From Gemmatimonadota bacterium (GTDB lineage: Bacteria; Gemmatimonadota; Gemmatimonadetes; Gemmatimonadales; GWC2-71-9): a stretch of 62,225 nucleotides of DNA. Position 1 is the first letter of the stretch. Each line of letters starts with the position of its first letter. Location: assembly GCA_039591485.1 (NCBI GenBank), contig JBDHDN010000001.1, forward strand, positions 1-62,225, given 5' to 3'. Below the pieces are notes generated by a model, which was not told the DNA's origin, searched no databases, and saw only the letters and a list, made by a program, of their open reading frames with translations. A program made the position numbers and the translations under genes. Below, piece by piece: positions 6,576 through 54,186 of the stretch.

Positions 6576-9176
6576 CTACTGAAAGGCCAGCCCCGCGAAG
6601 TTCGCGAGGAATAGGAAGAAGAAGCCGCTGTCCGGGCTCGATCCGGCCCCGACGTGGAACGCGCTCGCACGGTCGAAGGACGTGACGAACACGCCGCCAC
6701 CATACGAGGGGTGCCACCTGGAAGAGTCCTCGCCGTCCACGAACACCCTCGCGGCGTCGCCCATGCCGAAGAGACCGAAGCTCCCGGGAACGAACCCCCG
6801 GAAACGCGCGAGGGTCCAGCGCAGTGCGGCCAACCCTCCGACGGACGCCTCGCCGGCCCACCGGTTCCACTTGGTACCCAGCGGGTAATTGCTACCACCG
6901 ATATAGGCCGCTTCGAAATAGGGGACGTCCCCCCAGATCTTCCTGCCGCGCAGGTGGAGCGACAGTAACAGCGGCTTTGCGAGCGGGATGTAGCCGGCGG
7001 CGTGAGCGCCGATGTACCCGAACCGACTCTCGACGTCCCACGTCTGGAAGAAGTAGCTGCCCTCCCCCTCGATGAGAAACCCCGGCGTGAGGACGGTTTG
7101 CAGACCACGTGTGTCATAGCGGCCGCGCAGTTGGATGCCGATCTGGCCGAACTTGTCGGAGCCCACGGGCCGCTCTCGACCCAGTACCGTGTTCGAATCC
7201 GTCCCGCTGGAACTCGTGTACCTGACGATCGGGCCGATGGCCACCGCGCCCTTGTCTGCCGAGTACAAAGCAACACCCGGAAACAAAGTGAACTGGTACT
7301 GCGCAACCCGGTATTCCCGCTCGCCCAGATCGCCTGGGGTTTCGTTGCCCAGCCCGTAGTAGCGCAGCTGGTCGACTCCGGAGAATCGCGCTTCGAGCAC
7401 GTAACCGAACCGGGAGTTTTCCCGCCTGAAACTACCTTTGTAGTCCACGAACGGTCGGGTCACACCGAAGGCGAACCCGCCCTTGAGAATGTGACGATTC
7501 GCCCACGGGTACTTGCGGAACCCGTGGGCTCTGGTATCGAACCCGCCGCCCACGGTCAGGCCGGGATCCGACTGATACCCCGCGATCATCAGGGGCTTTG
7601 TCATGCCACCCCAGTCCTGCGCCGGGACCCATGGCATATCGTTGGGAGGCCTCGTCAGCGGCATCGTGAACGGCTTGGTGTTGAGTGTGGTCCCGCTGTC
7701 GCCGATCCGACGGCTCTCGCCCTCCGAAGCGTAGAACTTCACGCCGAATCCCCGCGAATCGTCGACCGTACTCACTCCAGGACCACCGATCACGCGAACG
7801 GTGATCGCCGGAGGGCTCGTTCCCCTAGTCACGACCGAGTCGCTCCCACCATGCAGATAGATCCGGACTTCCTTCGTTTCAGCCCGTGCAAAGCGACGGC
7901 GATAGTAGGGAGTCTCGAGGGTCGATTCTGTCCGGAGCGTCGCGACCTCCACCTCGACGTCTCCGTTCTCGAAGCTCTCGATGATGACGCGCTCGCCCTG
8001 GTCGGTGCCCTGAACGTCCACCTTGTCTGCGAGATAGGCGTAGTAGCGCTCCGCCATGGCGGCGAGCGCGTCCCGTCGGATCCTGAGTTTCGCCGAGATC
8101 TCCGCACCACGCCGCTCGTAATACTCGGGCGGCATCCGTCGTAGTCCTTCCTCCAGCACCTCGTCCGTCAAACGCCGCTGGAGGTCGTGGGCGATCTCCA
8201 TCCACTCGGGCTTCTCGATATTCGTCAGGAGAAAACGGTCGACATCCCAGCCGTTCTTCGTCGCCCGGCGCAGCGGCTCGAACTCGTCGTCGTACTTCAC
8301 GTACTGCGCGCCCTGGAGGCGGGCAAGGTCGAGCAGAAGTCCCCGGTAGTCTGTGAAGACCTGGTCCCGATCTTCGGGAATGGGTTGGAGCAGCGGTGTA
8401 TCCGGGAACCGCGCCCACCGCCACTGGCCGTGATGGCGATCCCAGTCGTTGAGAAGAAGGTCGAGGAGCCGCGCCTGCAGGAACGTCCGCGTGTCGGGCA
8501 GATACTGGGTACCCGCCTGCCGTGCACTCCAGAACTCCTCGGGACTGAGGATCTCGGATGCGCCACGGAATCCCGGGTTGCTATCGGACACCGGCTGCGG
8601 GAACTCCGTGATGACCCCCAACACACCAGCGAACTGTTCCCGAAACTCGGCGAGCGCGGGGTCGTCGGGCATGACGACGAGACGGGGATCGGTGGGTGCA
8701 GGGAGTCCCGCCGCCTGCTCGATCGGAGCCGTGACGACCTGCACGCCCGGGAAGTTCGCCGCGATCTGGTCTTGAATGACCTCGGCGAGAAACGTGCCGC
8801 GGAATGCCGGCGGGATCGTTTCGTCGGAATAGACTTTGTCTACGGAGCGGAACGTGTAATCGCGTCCGTCGCGGCCCCGCAGGGCGAGGCCGAGCGTCTG
8901 CATGCCACCCACTCGCATGACCGGTGTGAGGCCGCCGGCAAATGCCCGCAGATCGAGCACCTCGACCTCGACTGGAGCGGTCCACAGGTCTCGGTACCCG
9001 TCGCCCAGGAGCCAGCGTTGGCCCCCAGGTGGACTGGCGTACTGCGCTCCGGCAACGACGGTCGCCGTGCGGGCCTGCGCTGTCGCCCCGGATTGCGCTG
9101 CCGCGGCCAGCGGAATAGCCGAACAAGCGATTACCACCCCCATTCCCGCGACGGTAGTCCGCTGCATTTCGGTCAT
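6576..9176 (-). CDS. Omp85/BamA-family (surface antigen D15) outer-membrane protein with a large N-terminal region
   Basis: Track ORF of 866 aa with a signal peptide. The N-terminal region contains DWDRHHGQWRW. The C-terminal ~300 aa are Omp85-barrel-like (..YIGGSNYPLGTKWNRWAGEASVGGLAALRW..GGGVFV..). Its ATG overlaps the K+ channel stop as ATGA. Confidence 0.7.
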   Translation of the reverse strand: MTEMQRTTVAGMGVVIACSAIPLAAAAQSGATAQARTATVVAGAQYASPPGGQRWLLGDGYRDLWTAPVEVEVLDLRAFAGGLTPVMRVGGMQTLGLALRGRDGRDYTFRSVDKVYSDETIPPAFRGTFLAEVIQDQIAANFPGVQVVTAPIEQAAGLPAPTDPRLVVMPDDPALAEFREQFAGVLGVITEFPQPVSDSNPGFRGASEILSPEEFWSARQAGTQYLPDTRTFLQARLLDLLLNDWDRHHGQWRWARFPDTPLLQPIPEDRDQVFTDYRGLLLDLARLQGAQYVKYDDEFEPLRRATKNGWDVDRFLLTNIEKPEWMEIAHDLQRRLTDEVLEEGLRRMPPEYYERRGAEISAKLRIRRDALAAMAERYYAYLADKVDVQGTDQGERVIIESFENGDVEVEVATLRTESTLETPYYRRRFARAETKEVRIYLHGGSDSVVTRGTSPPAITVRVIGGPGVSTVDDSRGFGVKFYASEGESRRIGDSGTTLNTKPFTMPLTRPPNDMPWVPAQDWGGMTKPLMIAGYQSDPGLTVGGGFDTRAHGFRKYPWANRHILKGGFAFGVTRPFVDYKGSFRRENSRFGYVLEARFSGVDQLRYYGLGNETPGDLGEREYRVAQYQFTLFPGVALYSADKGAVAIGPIVRYTSSSGTDSNTVLGRERPVGSDKFGQIGIQLRGRYDTRGLQTVLTPGFLIEGEGSYFFQTWDVESRFGYIGAHAAGYIPLAKPLLLSLHLRGRKIWGDVPYFEAAYIGGSNYPLGTKWNRWAGEASVGGLAALRWTLARFRGFVPGSFGLFGMGDAARVFVDGEDSSRWHPSYGGGVFVTSFDRASAFHVGAGSSPDSGFFFLFLANFAGLAFQ

Positions 9177-21554: not shown

Positions 21555-21652
21555 GTGCAAGGTGAAGGGTGCAGGGTGAAGGGTGCAGAATGCAGAATGC
21601 AGAATGCAGATCGGAGATTGCAGATCGCAGAGTGCCGAGTGGAGGGTGGCGG
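21555..21652 (+). repeat. Heptanucleotide tandem array A (14 units, GTGCAGA type)
   Basis: The + strand reads GTGCAAG GTGAAGG GTGCAGG GTGAAGG GTGCAGA ATGCAGA ATGCAGA ATGCAGA TCGGAGA TTGCAGA TCGCAGA GTGCCGA GTGGAGG GTGGCGG. It begins about 11 nt after the cytochrome b stop. Confidence 0.9.
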
Positions 21653-28445: not shown

Positions 28446-29357
28446 ATGGGTCGCACCTACCTCCTCGCGGCTTCCACATTCCTCCTCGCCTGCGGGAGCG
28501 GTGACGCTCGTCTGTCCTCCGGCGAGTCCGAGACCGACGTACCTACGGTCTATACCGTCAACTACCCACTGCAGTACTTCGCCGAGCGCATCGGCGGCAA
28601 CCTCGTGGACGTCCAGTTTCCGGCGCCGGCCGACGTGGATCCCGCCTTTTGGAAACCGGATTCCGAGGCCCTGGCCGGGTACCAGCGAGCGGATCTGATC
28701 CTGCTCAACGGCGCGACGTACGCCAAGTGGCTGGCGGTGGTGACACTCCCCGAATCGCGACTGGTGAACACCTCCGCGGGATTCGAGGACCGCTACATCA
28801 ACTTGGAGAGTGCCGTCACCCACTCGCACGGGCTTGGTGGAGAGCACTCGCACGAAGGCACCGCCTTCACGACATGGCTTGATCCCGCACTCGCGGTCGC
28901 GCACGCTCGCTCGATCACCGGTGCGTTCGTCGCCCGATGGCCGGAGCACGAGGAAGTATTCGAGGCCGGCCTCCAGTCGCTCGAAGCCGACCTGCTCGCA
29001 CTCGACCGCGAGATCGTGGAGATCACGGCACGGGACCCGAGCAAGGTGTTGCTCAGCTCTCACCCGGTCTACCAGTACCTCGCTGCTCGGTACGCTCTCG
29101 AATTGCACGCCATGCAGTGGGAGCCGGACGAACCCCCATCTGAGGCGCAGTGGCAGGCCTTCGCGGACCTGTTGGCCGATCATCCGGCACAGTGGATGCT
29201 GTGGGAAGCCGAGCCGCTCGCCGAGACCGCCGCTCGACTGCGAGCACAGGGTGTGGAGCCCATCGTGTTCGATCAGTGCGGCAACGTGCCGAGTGAGGGA
29301 GACTACCTGAGCGTCATGCGGCACAACGCGCAGAGCCTGGCGCGGGCCTACCGGTAG
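28446..29357 (+). CDS. ZnuA/TroA-family metal-binding lipoprotein
   Basis: Start at MGRTYLLAASTFLLACGS (lipobox). Family pattern VYTVNYPLQYFAERIGG..ADLILLNGA..; a His-rich loop HSHGLGGEHSHEG is present. Confidence 0.8.
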   Translation: MGRTYLLAASTFLLACGSGDARLSSGESETDVPTVYTVNYPLQYFAERIGGNLVDVQFPAPADVDPAFWKPDSEALAGYQRADLILLNGATYAKWLAVVTLPESRLVNTSAGFEDRYINLESAVTHSHGLGGEHSHEGTAFTTWLDPALAVAHARSITGAFVARWPEHEEVFEAGLQSLEADLLALDREIVEITARDPSKVLLSSHPVYQYLAARYALELHAMQWEPDEPPSEAQWQAFADLLADHPAQWMLWEAEPLAETAARLRAQGVEPIVFDQCGNVPSEGDYLSVMRHNAQSLARAYR

Positions 29358-29405
29358 GCGGACGGGCGGATGGAGGGACGGGTGGACGGACGGATGGACG
29401 AGACG
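29358..29405. repeat. Octanucleotide tandem repeat (6 units, NNGGAYGG)
   Basis: GCGGACGG GCGGATGG AGGGACGG GTGGACGG ACGGATGG ACGAGACG follows directly after the TAG of the ZnuA-like gene, in a convergent intergenic spacer. Confidence 0.7.
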
Positions 29406-29437
29406 CGGCGGTAGCCGGGTGAAGCTCCGGATCCGGC

Positions 29438-37399: not shown

Positions 37400-38398
37400 A
37401 TGTCACGCCACATCACCGTGCGGCTCACTGCTGCCGTGTGTGCACTGGCCGCTGCAGCATGCACGCCGGCTGCGGAGTCGGACCCGCTGCCCTCCTGGAA
37501 CGAGGGCACGGCGAAGACGAACATCGTCGCCTTCGTCCGCTCCACCACTGACTCGACCGCTGCCGCGTTCGTACCACCGGCCGAGCGGATTGCCGTATTC
37601 GACAACGACGGCACGCTGTGGGCCGAGCAGCCGATGTACTTCCAGCTGGCATTCGCCATCGACCGCGTGCGGGAGTTGGCGCCCGACCATCCCGAGTGGT
37701 CCACGCAGATGCCGTTTGCCGCGATCGTGTCTGGTGACACCGAGGCTCTGGGGAGACTCACGGAGCATGACATCGTCGAGATCGTCACGGCTACCCACTC
37801 GGGGATGACCGTCGACGCGTTTCAGGCAGCGGTCGCAGACTGGCTCGCGACTGCGCGCCATCCCCGGTTCGATCAGCCGTACACGGCGCTGGCCTACCAA
37901 CCGATGCTCGAGCTGCTCGAGTACCTCCGAGCCAACGGATTCAAGACGTTCATCGTGTCCGGGGGCGGCATCGACTTCATGCGCGTCTTTGCGGAGGACG
38001 TCTACGGCATTCCCCCGGAGCAGACGATTGGGTCGATGGGCGCCATCGCCTTCGAGATGCGGGACGACGGGCCGGTGCTGGTGAAACAGCCGGGCGTCGA
38101 CTTCATCGACGACAAGGAAGGCAAGCCCATCGGCATCGCCCGCATCATCGGCCGCCGGCCGATCGCAGCGTTCGGCAACTCGGATGGCGACCTCGCGATG
38201 CTGCAGTACACCGCCGCCGGACAGGGCGCACCGCTCATGGTCTACATCCACCACGACGATGCCGACCGCGAGTGGGCCTACGATCGCGAGTCGCACATCG
38301 GTCGGCTGGATCAGGGACTCGACGAGGCGGCGGAGCGCGGCTGGACGGTGGTGTCGATGCGCACCGATTGGACGAGGGTGTTCAGCTTCGAGGAGTAG
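37400..38398 (+). CDS. HAD-superfamily (HAD-IB-like) hydrolase lipoprotein
   Basis: Track ORF of 332 aa with lipobox ALAAAAC, HAD motif I VFDNDGTLW, motif II/III ..IVSGGG.. and ..FGNSDGDLAML... An AAGGAG RBS is present. Confidence 0.75.
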   Translation: MSRHITVRLTAAVCALAAAACTPAAESDPLPSWNEGTAKTNIVAFVRSTTDSTAAAFVPPAERIAVFDNDGTLWAEQPMYFQLAFAIDRVRELAPDHPEWSTQMPFAAIVSGDTEALGRLTEHDIVEIVTATHSGMTVDAFQAAVADWLATARHPRFDQPYTALAYQPMLELLEYLRANGFKTFIVSGGGIDFMRVFAEDVYGIPPEQTIGSMGAIAFEMRDDGPVLVKQPGVDFIDDKEGKPIGIARIIGRRPIAAFGNSDGDLAMLQYTAAGQGAPLMVYIHHDDADREWAYDRESHIGRLDQGLDEAAERGWTVVSMRTDWTRVFSFEE

Positions 38399-38469
38399 CC
38401 GGGGCCGGCGGCGGCACCGGCCCGCGGGTACGAGTGTAAGCGCTTGTCGGACAAAGCGTTAGGAAGCGC

Positions 38470-38895
38470 GACGCAAGGCTCGGCACGGGATTCTCGAAGC
38501 TTCGAATGCCGCACTCCACGCTTCGAGCGGCGCGATTCAAGGCTCGACCGACTCGGTTGAAGCTTGGAGTTGGCCGGTTCAAGCTTGGATCAGCTCTCCC
38601 GAAGCTTCGCGGGTGCGGTCCGGAAGCTCGAATGCCCTGATCGAAGCTTGGAATAGGTCATCCAAGCTCCCGGAGGGCGCTCGTCGCGGTTGGAGTGTGC
38701 TGCTTGCAGCTTCGACCGGGTCGCTCGAAGCTTCGAGTCGGCCGTTTCAAGCTTCGACCGGCTCACTCCAAGCGTCGAGAGGGCCGTCTCAAGCCGCGGG
38801 CAGGCCGGGCCAAGCGTCGGCCGGCCCCGCCCAAACCTGCGGTCGGCCGGTCACTGCTCGGGGCGGGCCGATCCGCCCTGGGGGTTGCGCTTGAG
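38470..38895. repeat. Tandem array of about 20 copies of a 21-bp unit with a palindromic AAGCTT core
   Basis: AAGCTT-like cores sit at 38475, 38497, 38518, 38539, 38560, 38581, 38602, 38624, 38644, 38664, (degenerate ~38686), 38707, 38728, 38749, 38770, 38791, 38812, 38833, 38854 and 38875. Perfect palindromes are TCGAAGCTTCGA (38494-38505) and CTCGAAGCTTCGAG (38724-38737). Units degrade toward the 3' end. Confidence 0.85.
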
Positions 38896-38995
38896 AGGTG
38901 AGTGCACCGTTGCCATCGCTTCCTCCGGCAAGCCGCACTGTAGCTCCCCGCGGGGACTGCGTGCGCCGGTCGAGGGCCGCGCATTAGGTTCGGAT

Positions 38996-39385
38996 ATGCC
39001 GAACCGCGCGGGAGACTGGCTCACACAAGCTCGCCGAGATCTCGAGTTGGCTCGACACGCGGCGGACGGCGGATTCCACGAGTGGGCCTGCTTCGCAGCC
39101 CAGCAAGCGGCCGAGAAGGCAGTCAAGGCTCTCGTCGCCGCTCTCGGCGGCGAGGCGCGGGGGTACTCCATCGTGGCCATGGCCACGCTGCTTCCGACCC
39201 CTCCCGGGTTTCCGGCCGACCTCCTGGATCGCGCGAGGCAACTGGACCGGCATTACATCTCCACGCGATACCCCAACGGGTTCGCCGAGGGTGCCCCCAA
39301 GGATTACTTCACACCGCAGGATGCTGACGAGGCGGTGAACAATGCCGAATGGGTTCTCACCTACTGCGCCGGTCACGGTTCTTGA
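38996..39385 (+). CDS. HEPN-domain protein (toxin-like component of a HEPN-MNT pair)
   Basis: The 129-aa product starts at MPNRAGDWLTQARRDLELARHAADGGFHEWACFAAQQAAEKAVKAL.. and carries the R-x4-H-type motif RQLDRHYISTRYP. The 5' extension of the track ORF through the repeat array was rejected. Confidence 0.8.
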   Translation: MPNRAGDWLTQARRDLELARHAADGGFHEWACFAAQQAAEKAVKALVAALGGEARGYSIVAMATLLPTPPGFPADLLDRARQLDRHYISTRYPNGFAEGAPKDYFTPQDADEAVNNAEWVLTYCAGHGS

Positions 39386-39743
39386 TGCACGCGCGGTGGT
39401 CGGGCGACTCAGGGCGGTAGCGCAGGCGCTCTGCGCACGCGACCCCAACGTCGTCGCGGTCGTCCTGTTCGGATCACTGGCGCACGGTATCCCCACGCCG
39501 GCCAGCGATGCCGACCTCCTCGTCGTCCTGCGCAGCGATGCGAGACGCGTGCTTGACCGCATTCCGGATTGGACGCGGCCGTTCGAGACTCCTGGCCTCG
39601 CCATCCAGATGTTGCCATGGACCCTCGACGAGTTGCGCCGGCGACTCGCGGCCGGTCAGCGATTTGCCCGCGAGGTCATCGAGACCGGTATCGTCTTGGG
39701 GGGAAGCTTGCCCAAGGACTCGGGTCCGCGCAGCGACTCCTAG
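39342..39743 (+). CDS. Minimal nucleotidyltransferase (MNT, antitoxin-like component)
   Basis: Track ORF of 133 aa with the NTase motif VVLFGSLAHGIPTPASDADLLVVL. It overlaps the HEPN gene by 44 nt if the ATG at 39342 is used. Confidence 0.8.
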   Translation: MPNGFSPTAPVTVLDARAVVGRLRAVAQALCARDPNVVAVVLFGSLAHGIPTPASDADLLVVLRSDARRVLDRIPDWTRPFETPGLAIQMLPWTLDELRRRLAAGQRFAREVIETGIVLGGSLPKDSGPRSDS

Positions 39744-39744
39744 C

Positions 39745-39784
39745 CGTCGGACCGTCTTACCGTCCTACCGCCCTACCACCCTTC
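39745..39784. repeat. Octanucleotide tandem repeat (about 5 units, CGYCYTAC)
   Basis: CGTCGGAC CGTCTTAC CGTCCTAC CGCCCTAC CACCCTTC fills the 42-nt convergent spacer between the MNT stop (39743) and the porin stop (39786). Confidence 0.6.
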
Positions 39785-51643: not shown

Positions 51644-51713
51644 TAGTCATTCTGCACTCTGCATTCAGCATTCTGCACTCAGCACTCTGCACTCTGCACT
51701 CTGCATTCCCTCA
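51644..51713 (-). repeat. Heptanucleotide tandem array C (about 10 units)
   Basis: The plus strand reads TCTGCAC TCTGCAT TCAGCAT TCTGCAC TCAGCAC TCTGCAC TCTGCAC TCTGCAT TCCCTCA, so the minus (sense) strand reads GTGCAGA/ATGCAGA. The first unit on the sense strand contains the DUF3604 copy-2 stop. The array fills most of the spacer to the sulfatase-2 RBS. Confidence 0.85.
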
Positions 51714-53593: not shown

Positions 53594-53659
53594 GCCAACT
53601 CCTCCTCAAGTGTTTGCTCGTGACTCCACGTGCTATCGCACCATGCCTGCAACCCGTAC

Positions 53660-53722
53660 TCTGCATTCTGCATTCTGCGTTCTGCATTCTGCGTTCTGCG
53701 TTCTGCGTTCTGCACTCTTCAC
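53660..53722 (-). repeat. Heptanucleotide tandem array D (9 units)
   Basis: The plus strand reads TCTGCAT TCTGCAT TCTGCGT TCTGCAT TCTGCGT TCTGCGT TCTGCGT TCTGCAC TCTTCAC, so the sense strand reads ATGCAGA/ACGCAGA/GTGCAGA. It overlaps the stop codon (53719-53721) of the upstream glycine-zipper gene. Confidence 0.85.
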
Positions 53723-54186
53723 TCACGCTGCACCCGTTGCACCTGCGTTCCTCTGGGGCCGCTCGTCAGACGAACCCGGTCTCCGGCGTAGTACTGCTGC
53801 TCACCCGCGAGTTGGATCGCGACTTCGTCGCCCGAGTCGAGCCGGATGGTCAACTCGGTACCGCGTTTCGTTGAGCCGGCACGGTCGGCTGCACGACCGA
53901 TCGCGCCACCAATCGCCCCACCGACAAGCGCGCCGAGCAGCCCATCGCCGCGCCGCGCGATCGCGGCGCCGGCGATGGCGCCCACGGTCGATCCCGCCGC
54001 GGCACCACGGCCGCTCGGACGGTCCTGGATAACGACGGCTTGTGCCGAGAGGACTTCACCATACTGTAGCCGCTGCATCACGTTCGACTGCGCGGTGACG
54101 GAATCGGCGGCCACGAGTCCAACGCCGAGCGTCATCGCGCACCCGAGCCATGCAGCGGACAGCTGGCCCGCAGCGCGCCGCGACAT
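53719..54186 (-). CDS. Glycine-zipper (SlyB/17-kDa-antigen-like) outer-membrane lipoprotein
   Basis: Track ORF of 155 aa with a lipobox-like AAWLGC and Gly-zipper GSTVGAIAGAAIARRGDGLLGALVGGAIGGAIG. Confidence 0.65.
   Translation of the reverse strand: MSRRAAGQLSAAWLGCAMTLGVGLVAADSVTAQSNVMQRLQYGEVLSAQAVVIQDRPSGRGAAAGSTVGAIAGAAIARRGDGLLGALVGGAIGGAIGRAADRAGSTKRGTELTIRLDSGDEVAIQLAGEQQYYAGDRVRLTSGPRGTQVQRVQRE

Follow-up and report, generated by a model that had tools for sequence, protein, structure and literature searches.

Several families of short repeats are known from the intergenic regions of bacterial genomes. Mycobacterial interspersed repetitive units (MIRU) are 40-100 bp long and contain small open reading frames (ORFs) that overlap the stop and start codons of the flanking genes; BOX elements are known from Streptococcus pneumoniae; and repetitive extragenic palindromic (REP) sequences and bacterial interspersed mosaic elements (BIME) are thought to stabilise the upstream mRNA or to punctuate transcription. 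Here we describe a tandem array of 21-bp units in a stretch of 62,225 nt from a Gemmatimonadota bacterium (contig JBDHDN010000001.1, positions 1 to 62,225 of the forward strand; assembly GCA_039591485.1), which we call the window. The array lies at 38435-38957, between a gene for a HAD-family hydrolase and a HEPN-MNT gene pair, and on our best reading it belongs, as one of the copies, to a family of interspersed, non-coding tandem repeats in Gemmatimonadota that has not been described before. The element is non-coding, chromosomal, dispersed and fairly old, and its site is a synteny breakpoint. Gemmatimonadota abound in soils and sediments and have hardly been studied genetically; a full-text literature search returned nothing relevant to the repeat (the only matches were cloning primers) and no description of an interspersed repeat family for this phylum.

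The self-identity of the array is 0.50 at a lag of 21, 0.52 at a lag of 42 and 0.48 at a lag of 63. The lag-21 background across the window is 0.308 +/- 0.030, and the array region is its maximum. A pattern of three phased cores, with up to two mismatches allowed, has 10 matches in the array, none elsewhere in the window and none in shuffled sequence. Lag identity, lattice and core-pattern matches together confirm a tandem 21-bp array with palindromic cores, as an earlier note made from the letters alone had proposed. That note counted about 20 copies, which holds for the lattice (~19 positions of 21 bp, with decayed edges), of which 16 keep a recognisable core. All three parts of the array are on the forward strand: a leader of about three decayed units beginning TGTAAGCGCTTGTCGG (38435-38496), which nhmmer profile and alignments show to be conserved among family copies; the core array of 16 units with a recognisable AAGC(TT)CGA core (38497-38832); and GC-rich decayed 3' units with a trailer (38833-38957). 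The units are 21 bp long except for a run of 22, 20, 20 and 22 bp in the middle of the array, and the lattice is therefore restored twice. Tandem Repeats Finder recovers only the best-preserved part (38708-38794), with periods of 21 and 42, and the array has a higher-order structure with repeats at 42 and 84 bp. The conserved AT-rich core, AAGCTTCGA, often lies within a palindrome of 12-18 bp, and the remaining 12 nt of the unit vary. The inverted repeats are perfect in two units of the window, TCGAAGCTTCGA (12 bp, 38494-38505) and CTCGAAGCTTCGAG (14 bp, 38724-38737), both exactly where they had been noticed before; about half of the units of the family are asymmetric at +/-4. Decay of the window units from AT to GC increases toward the 3' end.

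We scanned metagenomes for three phased cores (AAGCTTNGA-N12-AAGCTTNGA-N12-AAGC) and obtained at least 120 loci, against about two expected by chance (a rough hand estimate). In the high-GC matches L135, L189, L201 and L221 (L-numbers denote the other contigs and loci compared), the consensus unit AAGCTTCGAG[CT]GCCTCACTC[GC] nearly equals the window unit AAGCTTCGACCGGCTCACTCC, and the unit of L230, AAGCTTCGAAAGGGCCGTCCG, resembles the second unit type of the window, AAGCGTCGAGAGGGCCGTCTC. When aligned, the window array is homologous unit by unit to those of L135, L189, L198, L201 and L221, the degenerate units included: for example, the second unit begins ACGCTTCGAGCG in the window and in L221 alike, and the degenerate pair CTCCCGGAGGGCGCTCGTCGCGGTTGGAGTG in the window matches CTTCCGGACCCTGCGCATCGGCGTTCGAGTA in L135. 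All complete copies open with a common stretch of 60 nt, CGTAAG-N14-(A/G)GTT-...-CCGTTTCGAG, which on inspection consists of three decayed units; a nhmmer profile of this leader matches the window, L152, L189/L135, L201, L221 and L163/L230/L147 with E-values from 1e-14 to 1e-19. A profile of the 3' trailer, built from L135, L198 and L201, has no match to the window, and the window trailer shows a faint resemblance, by eye, to the trailers of these three loci in the alignment. A family copy is a block of ~400-520 bp with a strict 21-bp lattice and decayed terminal units as its leader. The copies are known from metagenome contigs, and the 62-kb window holds one of them by both core pattern and leader profile.

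The flanks of the copies are unrelated, with the exception of one orthologous group, and the family therefore occupies at least five gene contexts: whole-array homologues are found at several unrelated intergenic sites, as in MIRU- and BOX-like elements. No gene family recurs beside the arrays among the contexts examined, and the sequence upstream of the leader is not conserved between family copies.

Arrays of a similar kind can be found in many phyla. Scans of genomes, metagenomes and viruses for AAGCTT repeated every 21 bp gave at least 120 matches each, and Acidobacteriota and Gemmatimonadota together account for ~24 among the 120 genome matches listed. We do not claim a cross-phylum class from these scans and treat the picture as one of ascertainment, because the pattern itself selects such arrays and because tandem arrays found without a seed, with periods of 12, 14, 15, 21 and others, are also common in the same DNA. 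Some of the matches are inside long ORFs (e.g. L096 and L097). We accept homology only for the Gemmatimonadota family, whose copies have the leader and the order of units in common.

Two sets of these other matches are described here for their own sake. L097 has four exact 21-bp units (AAGCTTCGATCCTTCAAATTG) at 2065-2148, inside an open frame of 425 codons whose N-terminal part looks, by eye, like a phage or plasmid replication-organiser; these may be lambda-type iterons in an initiator gene. Degenerate 21-bp arrays are found in metagenome-assembled genomes (MAGs) of Acidobacteriota; they have 14-22 units, alternating in type, with a GAAGCTTC core (L007, L105, L104, L077, L095 and L082), and two of them, in the Thermoanaerobaculia MAG SMAG_U1354 (L007 793-1086 and L105 7435-7728), share the unit AAGCTTCCCCGGTCACCTCCG. 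This array type is similar but distinct, and may represent an analogous family in a second phylum.

The position of the window array was compared with the corresponding loci of relatives. From ~2.5 kb upstream to 9.5 kb downstream of the array, the called genes and their Pfam matches are a sulfatase, the HAD hydrolase, HEPN, MNT, a porin, a carbonic anhydrase and BatD/VWA/MoxR genes. The HAD gene (37400-38398, forward strand; Pfam HAD, 3.9e-12) and the HEPN-MNT pair (38996-39743, forward strand; HEPN at 38996-39385 with Pfam HEPN, 1.2e-28, and MNT at 39342-39743 with NTP_transf_2, 1.6e-9) are neighbours and not parts of the element; homologues of the HAD and HEPN proteins come from Gemmatimonadota, at 74-80% identity. 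DNA homology to relatives ends at the HAD stop codon (the alignments to L367, L125, L368 and L369 end at 38391-38398) and begins again at 38958, 38 nt ahead of the HEPN ATG. Between these points lies a block of 559 bp (38399-38957), which begins with a GC-rich spacer on the forward strand (38399-38434) without counterpart in relatives and ends with the trailer. In L370-L372, where HEPN is 86% identical, the gene order is ABC-MacB-ZnuA-[168 bp]-HEPN-MNT-porin-carbonic anhydrase and there is no array; the order HAD-ABC-MacB is found in L367 and in a second contig carrying the HAD protein of L125. The window block thus stands where relatives carry ABC, MacB and ZnuA. Relative to close relatives, which carry this cluster (ABC-ATPase, MacB-type permease, ZnuA-type binding protein; compared in L370 43-2903 and L367 3590-5445) between HAD and HEPN-MNT, the window lineage has lost it. 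Six loci with HAD orthologues (81-84% identity) have short, array-free spacers downstream of the gene and varied genes beyond, and the sulfatase gene is still upstream of HAD in five of the six. An 11-nt direct repeat, CCCGCGGG[T/G]AC, is present at 38421 and 38947, its second copy at the right-hand boundary of the block; we do not call it a target duplication because the empty site of relatives shows nothing that corresponds to it.

In L126 (CP070666.1, a Gemmatimonadota MAG), a different degenerate 21-bp array with the unit TATTGGCGGGAGGAAGCTCAC is found at ~7180-7500, in a gap of 800 bp after a HAD orthologue of 80% identity. The position is that of the window array, and HEPN-MNT is absent.

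The array lies directly upstream of, and in the same orientation as, a gene for a predicted RNase toxin, which could suggest a repeat RNA like ToxI of type III toxin-antitoxin systems that would serve or regulate the adjacent HEPN RNase. A link of the array to HEPN-MNT had also been implied by the earlier note. The distribution speaks otherwise: the same HEPN-MNT-porin-carbonic-anhydrase block is without an array in L370-L372; the distant HEPN-MNT loci L373-L375 have integrase or transposase genes beside them, and to judge by their gene tables an array would not fit there; and the homologous arrays elsewhere adjoin unrelated genes, without HEPN. In type III systems the repeat units are ~34-45 nt long and the toxins belong to the ToxN, CptN and TenpN families; here the unit is 21 nt and the toxin belongs to none of these. 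A ToxI-like role, to which we give next to no weight, must be taken as already refuted by the distribution of arrays and gene pairs in the loci compared. Because the HEPN-MNT pairs of relatives lack arrays and the homologous arrays adjoin unrelated genes, the relation of array and gene pair is, on this comparative evidence, one of adjacency only. Absence in syntenic relatives with no linked gene, which the note had named as an outcome that would speak against its proposal, is what was found, and a tempting but wrong toxin-antitoxin link is thereby removed.

The stretch between the block and the HEPN gene (38958-38995, forward strand) is conserved in the array-less relatives, with 84% identity to L370, L371 and L372 from 38958 on, and probably holds the HEPN-MNT pair's own promoter. 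A TTAGGTT motif (TTAGATT in L370 and L377) that ends 7 nt before the HEPN ATG is kept in relatives; if it is a -10 element, the HEPN-MNT mRNA would have little or no leader.

The array is carried by three further assemblies (L001, L376 and L377), two of them from different samples. In L376, whose HAD is 99.7% identical, the array is identical to that of the window. L377 is a partial contig that starts inside the array (its HEPN gene is 97.9% identical) and has five substitutions over the ~370 nt of overlap upstream of HEPN, with the same units in the same order as in the window. L001 differs from the window only by a 4-bp duplication of ATCA (38589-38592, forward strand, in the window). The array is not an assembly artefact, a point on which a check had been advised, and its copy number is stable in the population: wherever these assemblies overlap the window, they have the same units in the same order.

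One gene context holds several family copies. In L163, L230, L147, L174 and L135/L189 the array is directly upstream of a small gene with an FN3 domain, which starts MQFPERE... or MQYPSRE... and has its own Shine-Dalgarno sequence and ATG; in L163, L230, L147 and L189 the array is also downstream of a coiled-coil/transmembrane (TM) gene. The pair (in L163, on the reverse complement, 3-626 and 999-1600; also in L174 and L135) encodes a coiled-coil protein with a C-terminal TM helix and a protein of ~200 aa with a helical N-terminus and an FN3 domain (Pfam fn3, 2.5e-6). Between the two lineages the FN3 proteins share only 42% identity, and even so both have arrays in which the leader, the AAGCTTCGA cores and a 21-nt lattice without breaks are retained. 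L163 and L230 have 12 units each (L163, reverse complement, 696-948; L230, 334-586) with a different mix of unit types, and the first 330 nt of their downstream genes are 99.4% identical. This difference indicates unit turnover, or possibly mis-assembly of the repeat.

These observations bear on the idea that the array is a selfish or neutral minisatellite, a hairpin-prone unit that grew by slippage or unequal exchange, was copied by recombination and is now decaying without function. Such an origin would agree with the absence of the array in syntenic relatives and its place at a synteny breakpoint, with the decayed edges and the AT-to-GC decay toward the 3' end, with the 42/84-bp higher-order structure, with the different unit composition of L163 and L230, with the 4-bp indel in one variant and with the abundance of tandem arrays of many periods in the DNA that was fetched. 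But leader and cores can still be aligned between loci whose flanking proteins share only 42% identity, and a neutral minisatellite fits poorly with such retention. In addition, the copy number is unchanged in the other assemblies (L377 with its few substitutions included), and strongly diverged units are still exactly 21 nt long. We therefore hold neutral decay to be rather unlikely, if still worth weighing.

We also asked what the array might encode, since seven codons span 21 bp. Over the full length of the array one frame stays open, for 144 codons; the frames read as heptads (KLRxxxx, SFExxxx and LEASxxx), the KL frame of the FN3 locus enters the downstream gene without a stop, and the +1/-1 length changes compensate each other, all of which could be expected of a decayed or cryptic gene for a heptad-repeat protein. 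The open frame, however, has no start codon before 38613, and the GC content at third codon positions (GC3) is flat: 0.63-0.70 in all three array frames, against 0.75-0.86 in the neighbouring genes. For the ORF 38613-38894 we recomputed a GC3 of 0.65, the value of about 65% that had been counted by hand. Where homologous copies mismatch, the three codon phases are affected evenly (e.g. 21/13/18 and 34/31/28), and the homologues differ by indels of 1, 2 and 4 nt. Six-frame translation was likewise negative, and no array frame has a Pfam match. Searched against 5.8 billion proteins, the frame that is open throughout found no homologue; a second, coiled-coil-looking frame, searched against 1.8 billion representatives, has a single marginal match (E = 1e-3). 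The gene that follows the arrays of the FN3 locus has start signals of its own, as described above. Since there is no codon-phase bias, the indels are of 1, 2 and 4 nt, GC3 is flat and protein homologues are lacking, the array is non-coding and the heptad peptides are by-products of the 21-bp unit, as the earlier note had supposed. The decayed repeat-protein gene that the same note kept as its alternative found no homologue apart from the one marginal match; it is largely refuted, and we think it very improbable.

The geometry of the array is that of iterons, direct repeats of ~17-22 bp at about two helical turns: the window has a 21-bp lattice with 16 recognisable units. An iteron-like or centromere-like array had been one of the readings offered for it. 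A plasmid-type origin or centromere was nevertheless rejected. Gene calls between ~2.5 kb upstream and 9.5 kb downstream of the array include no rep, par or integrase gene, in agreement with the earlier observation that no partition, replication or integrase gene is nearby, and no partition genes (parA/parB, parM/parR or tubZ/tubR) are found beside the window array or the family copies examined. The nearest site similar to a DnaA box is ~5 kb away, and the total of such sites in the window is at chance level; there is no AT-rich stretch, the lowest GC content in 100-bp windows being 0.59. BLAST against 72,556 plasmid and 50,697 phage records gave no match, and the flanks of the window array are syntenic with chromosomal loci of relatives. 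Of the iteron or centromere reading, the geometry thus stands, and the replication or partition genes, DnaA boxes, AT-rich region and mobile-replicon context are lacking. A CRISPR array, which had been dismissed from the beginning, was rejected here too: the period is 21 bp, the variable parts of 12 nt are related to one another, and there are no cas genes nearby.

The way the copies are placed offers a hint of function. In the window, L189 and L163 the array starts 14-37 nt past the stop codon of a co-oriented upstream gene; in the four contexts in which the downstream gene is known (the window, the FN3 locus, L201 and L211), the array points the same way as that gene; and at the FN3 locus a terminator-like hairpin closes the arrays, just ahead of the ribosome-binding site of the next gene. 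From these three features we infer, tentatively and at somewhat short of an even chance, that the element acts in cis on RNA within transcripts and not as part of a replicon. Transcription of the upstream gene would read through the array, and the stacked palindromes in the transcript would fold into a run of hairpins. These hairpins could mark or protect the end of the transcript and could insulate the downstream promoter, by analogy with what REP/BIME, BOX or MIRU elements do.

A number of points weigh against this proposal, or against the wider picture of a dispersed element to which it belongs. The orientation counts rest on only four or five contexts. A scan for sigma-70 promoters and canonical terminators found none, with the limit that these consensus sequences may not be those of Gemmatimonadota. 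Retention at the FN3 locus could reflect a mobile cassette of three parts and not vertical conservation. Terminal inverted repeats like those of BOX elements or of miniature inverted-repeat transposable elements were looked for in the window array, and the best complement of leader and trailer, 9-18 nt with mismatches, is unconvincing; there is also no convincing target-site duplication at the window array. The comparison of RNA hairpins with DNA palindromes, made on 119 units of the family, does not favour RNA: G-U and A-C mismatches at mirrored positions number 112 and 103, and because the two are equally common neither strand is marked as a selected RNA hairpin. In folding predictions both strands do much better than shuffled sequences (z-scores of -5.4 and -5.6), which speaks for hairpins as such, but by this model the two strands fold equally well. 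The exact lattice of 21.0 bp, the compensated +1/-1 lengths and the better-kept core suit a protein-binding role at the DNA level at least as well.

That role is the main rival to cis action on the transcript. It draws on a lattice of exactly two turns and on a conserved, AT-rich core: a dimeric or cooperative protein would bind the AAGCTTCGA or palindromic core every two helical turns, on one face of the DNA, and the array would work on the chromosome as a decoy that titrates the protein, as an insulator or as a scaffold for nucleoprotein, with iteron-, sopC- or parC-like geometry outside a replicon. In a genome of 66% GC the AT-rich core is better conserved than the spacer (0.79 versus 0.69, with the caution that anchoring of the units favours the core), the 3' half of the core (CGA) being better kept than the 5' half; the palindrome mismatches are symmetric, without G-U bias; the family has been retained over long times; and Watson-Crick covariation preserves the palindromes, with 66 mirrored pairs at +/-7 against 42.6 +/- 4.4 in shuffled units and 64 at +/-9 against 45 +/- 4.5. 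Part of this covariation, however, is due to two subfamilies (T-A versus C-G) and is confounded by them. Half of the units are asymmetric at +/-4, no gene for a candidate binding protein is linked to the array in any context, the close relatives lack the array with no visible effect on the gene order around HEPN-MNT, and neither rep or par genes, DnaA boxes and an AT-rich region nor plasmid or phage similarity accompany it. A phased DNA array of this kind is, in our view, unlikely.

Also at the RNA level, the array could be a stand-alone small or long non-coding RNA whose repeated hairpin sites sequester an RNA-binding protein in the manner of CsrB or RsmZ. As in the Rsm and Csr RNAs, paralogous copies occur in unrelated contexts, their 5' leader being conserved and their number of units variable; the predicted folding is strong, and some copies have a terminal hairpin. 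Nevertheless, no Rfam match was found in the window at E-values up to 5, nor at the gathering threshold in seven family loci; promoter and terminator consensus sequences were not found, the sequence upstream of the leader is not conserved, and neither wobble pairs nor folding show strand asymmetry. GGA motifs are irregular and are present only in a minority of units, and we know of no protein that binds AGCU loops. A sponge RNA is therefore quite improbable. The TGTAAG of the leader recalls a half-site of the GacA box, which we take to be TGTAAG-N6-CTTACA; this likeness, being to a half-site only, was dismissed.

A broader possibility covers both levels: the cores may be selectively maintained, phase-locked binding sites, either in DNA every two turns or as RNA hairpins with AGCU loops, for a protein partner in Gemmatimonadota, and the array a titration or scaffolding device that has been copied to several loci. 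It is suggested because leader, cores and the exact 21-nt lattice are kept between loci whose flanking proteins are 42% identical, and we regard it as possible but on the whole doubtful. If true, the array would represent a new class of cis element; and if the phased cores are true binding sites, it would be the chromosomal counterpart, with no replicon attached, of the centromere or iteron arrays of plasmids, which would be new. Whatever its function, the array family can serve to type strains and to mark synteny breakpoints, it cautions annotators against calling heptad-repeat ORFs in such places, and it can be used as bait for a DNA- or RNA-binding partner.

The window contains other short repeats. 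Five copies of (T/C)CCTACCG follow directly after the MNT stop codon (39738-39782), and GC-rich 8-nt repeats like GGACGGAT are at 29357-29411; similar to these 8-nt repeats of the window, GGACGGA repeats fill the ZnuA-HEPN spacer of L370 (2904-2990). Runs of a heptamer, with ~8-11 copies each and apparently intergenic, are at 21555-21635, 51648-51708 and 53658-53724: the heptamer is TCTGCA[CT] on the forward strand at ~51.6 and 53.7 kb, and its complement, TGCAGA[AT]/GTGCAGG, is found at 21.6 kb. They look like a second dispersed repeat, of microsatellite type.

Among known elements, MIRU, the pneumococcal BOX and REP/BIME come closest in architecture and distribution; the family has no sequence in common with any of them. 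Like MIRU, it consists of minisatellite-like arrays at many intergenic sites, oriented as the flanking genes, without a linked gene and variable between lineages. Unlike MIRU, with their longer units and small ORFs overlapping the flanking stop and start codons, the family has units of 21 bp with a palindromic core and no ORF signal, belongs to another phylum and shows no sequence similarity.

BOX elements (boxA-boxB(n)-boxC) resemble the family in having a 5' module, variable tandem units and a 3' module, in being intergenic and in their strong predicted folding. However, boxB is 45 bp long and present in 0-8 copies, and boxA and boxC pair as terminal inverted repeats, of which the window array has none; the 'modules' of the present family are decayed units of the same repeat. 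With REP/BIME the family shares short imperfect palindromes that are clustered in intergenic regions just after genes, where those of REP/BIME are co-transcribed. REPs are 20-40 nt long, usually alternate in orientation, are variably spaced and depend on the RAYT transposase, whereas the units of the window array follow one another head-to-tail, as direct repeats on a fixed lattice of 21 bp.

The likeness to iteron and centromere arrays (the iterons of P1, F and R6K, sopC of F with 12 x 43 bp, and parC of pSK41 with 20-bp repeats) is geometric only: direct repeats of ~20 bp at about two helical turns, in some cases with inverted repeats, bound cooperatively in the known systems. Those arrays stand beside rep or par genes, DnaA boxes and AT-rich regions on mobile replicons, all of which the window array is without, and they usually have 3-12 copies, fewer than the window. 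Finally, the CsrB and RsmX/Y/Z RNAs are comparable in that they come from several paralogous loci and present short motifs in hairpins in variable number; they differ from the present family in that their GGA motifs are irregular and their promoters and terminators are defined, whereas the motif of the window array is a different one, strictly periodic, with no Rfam match, promoter or terminator found.

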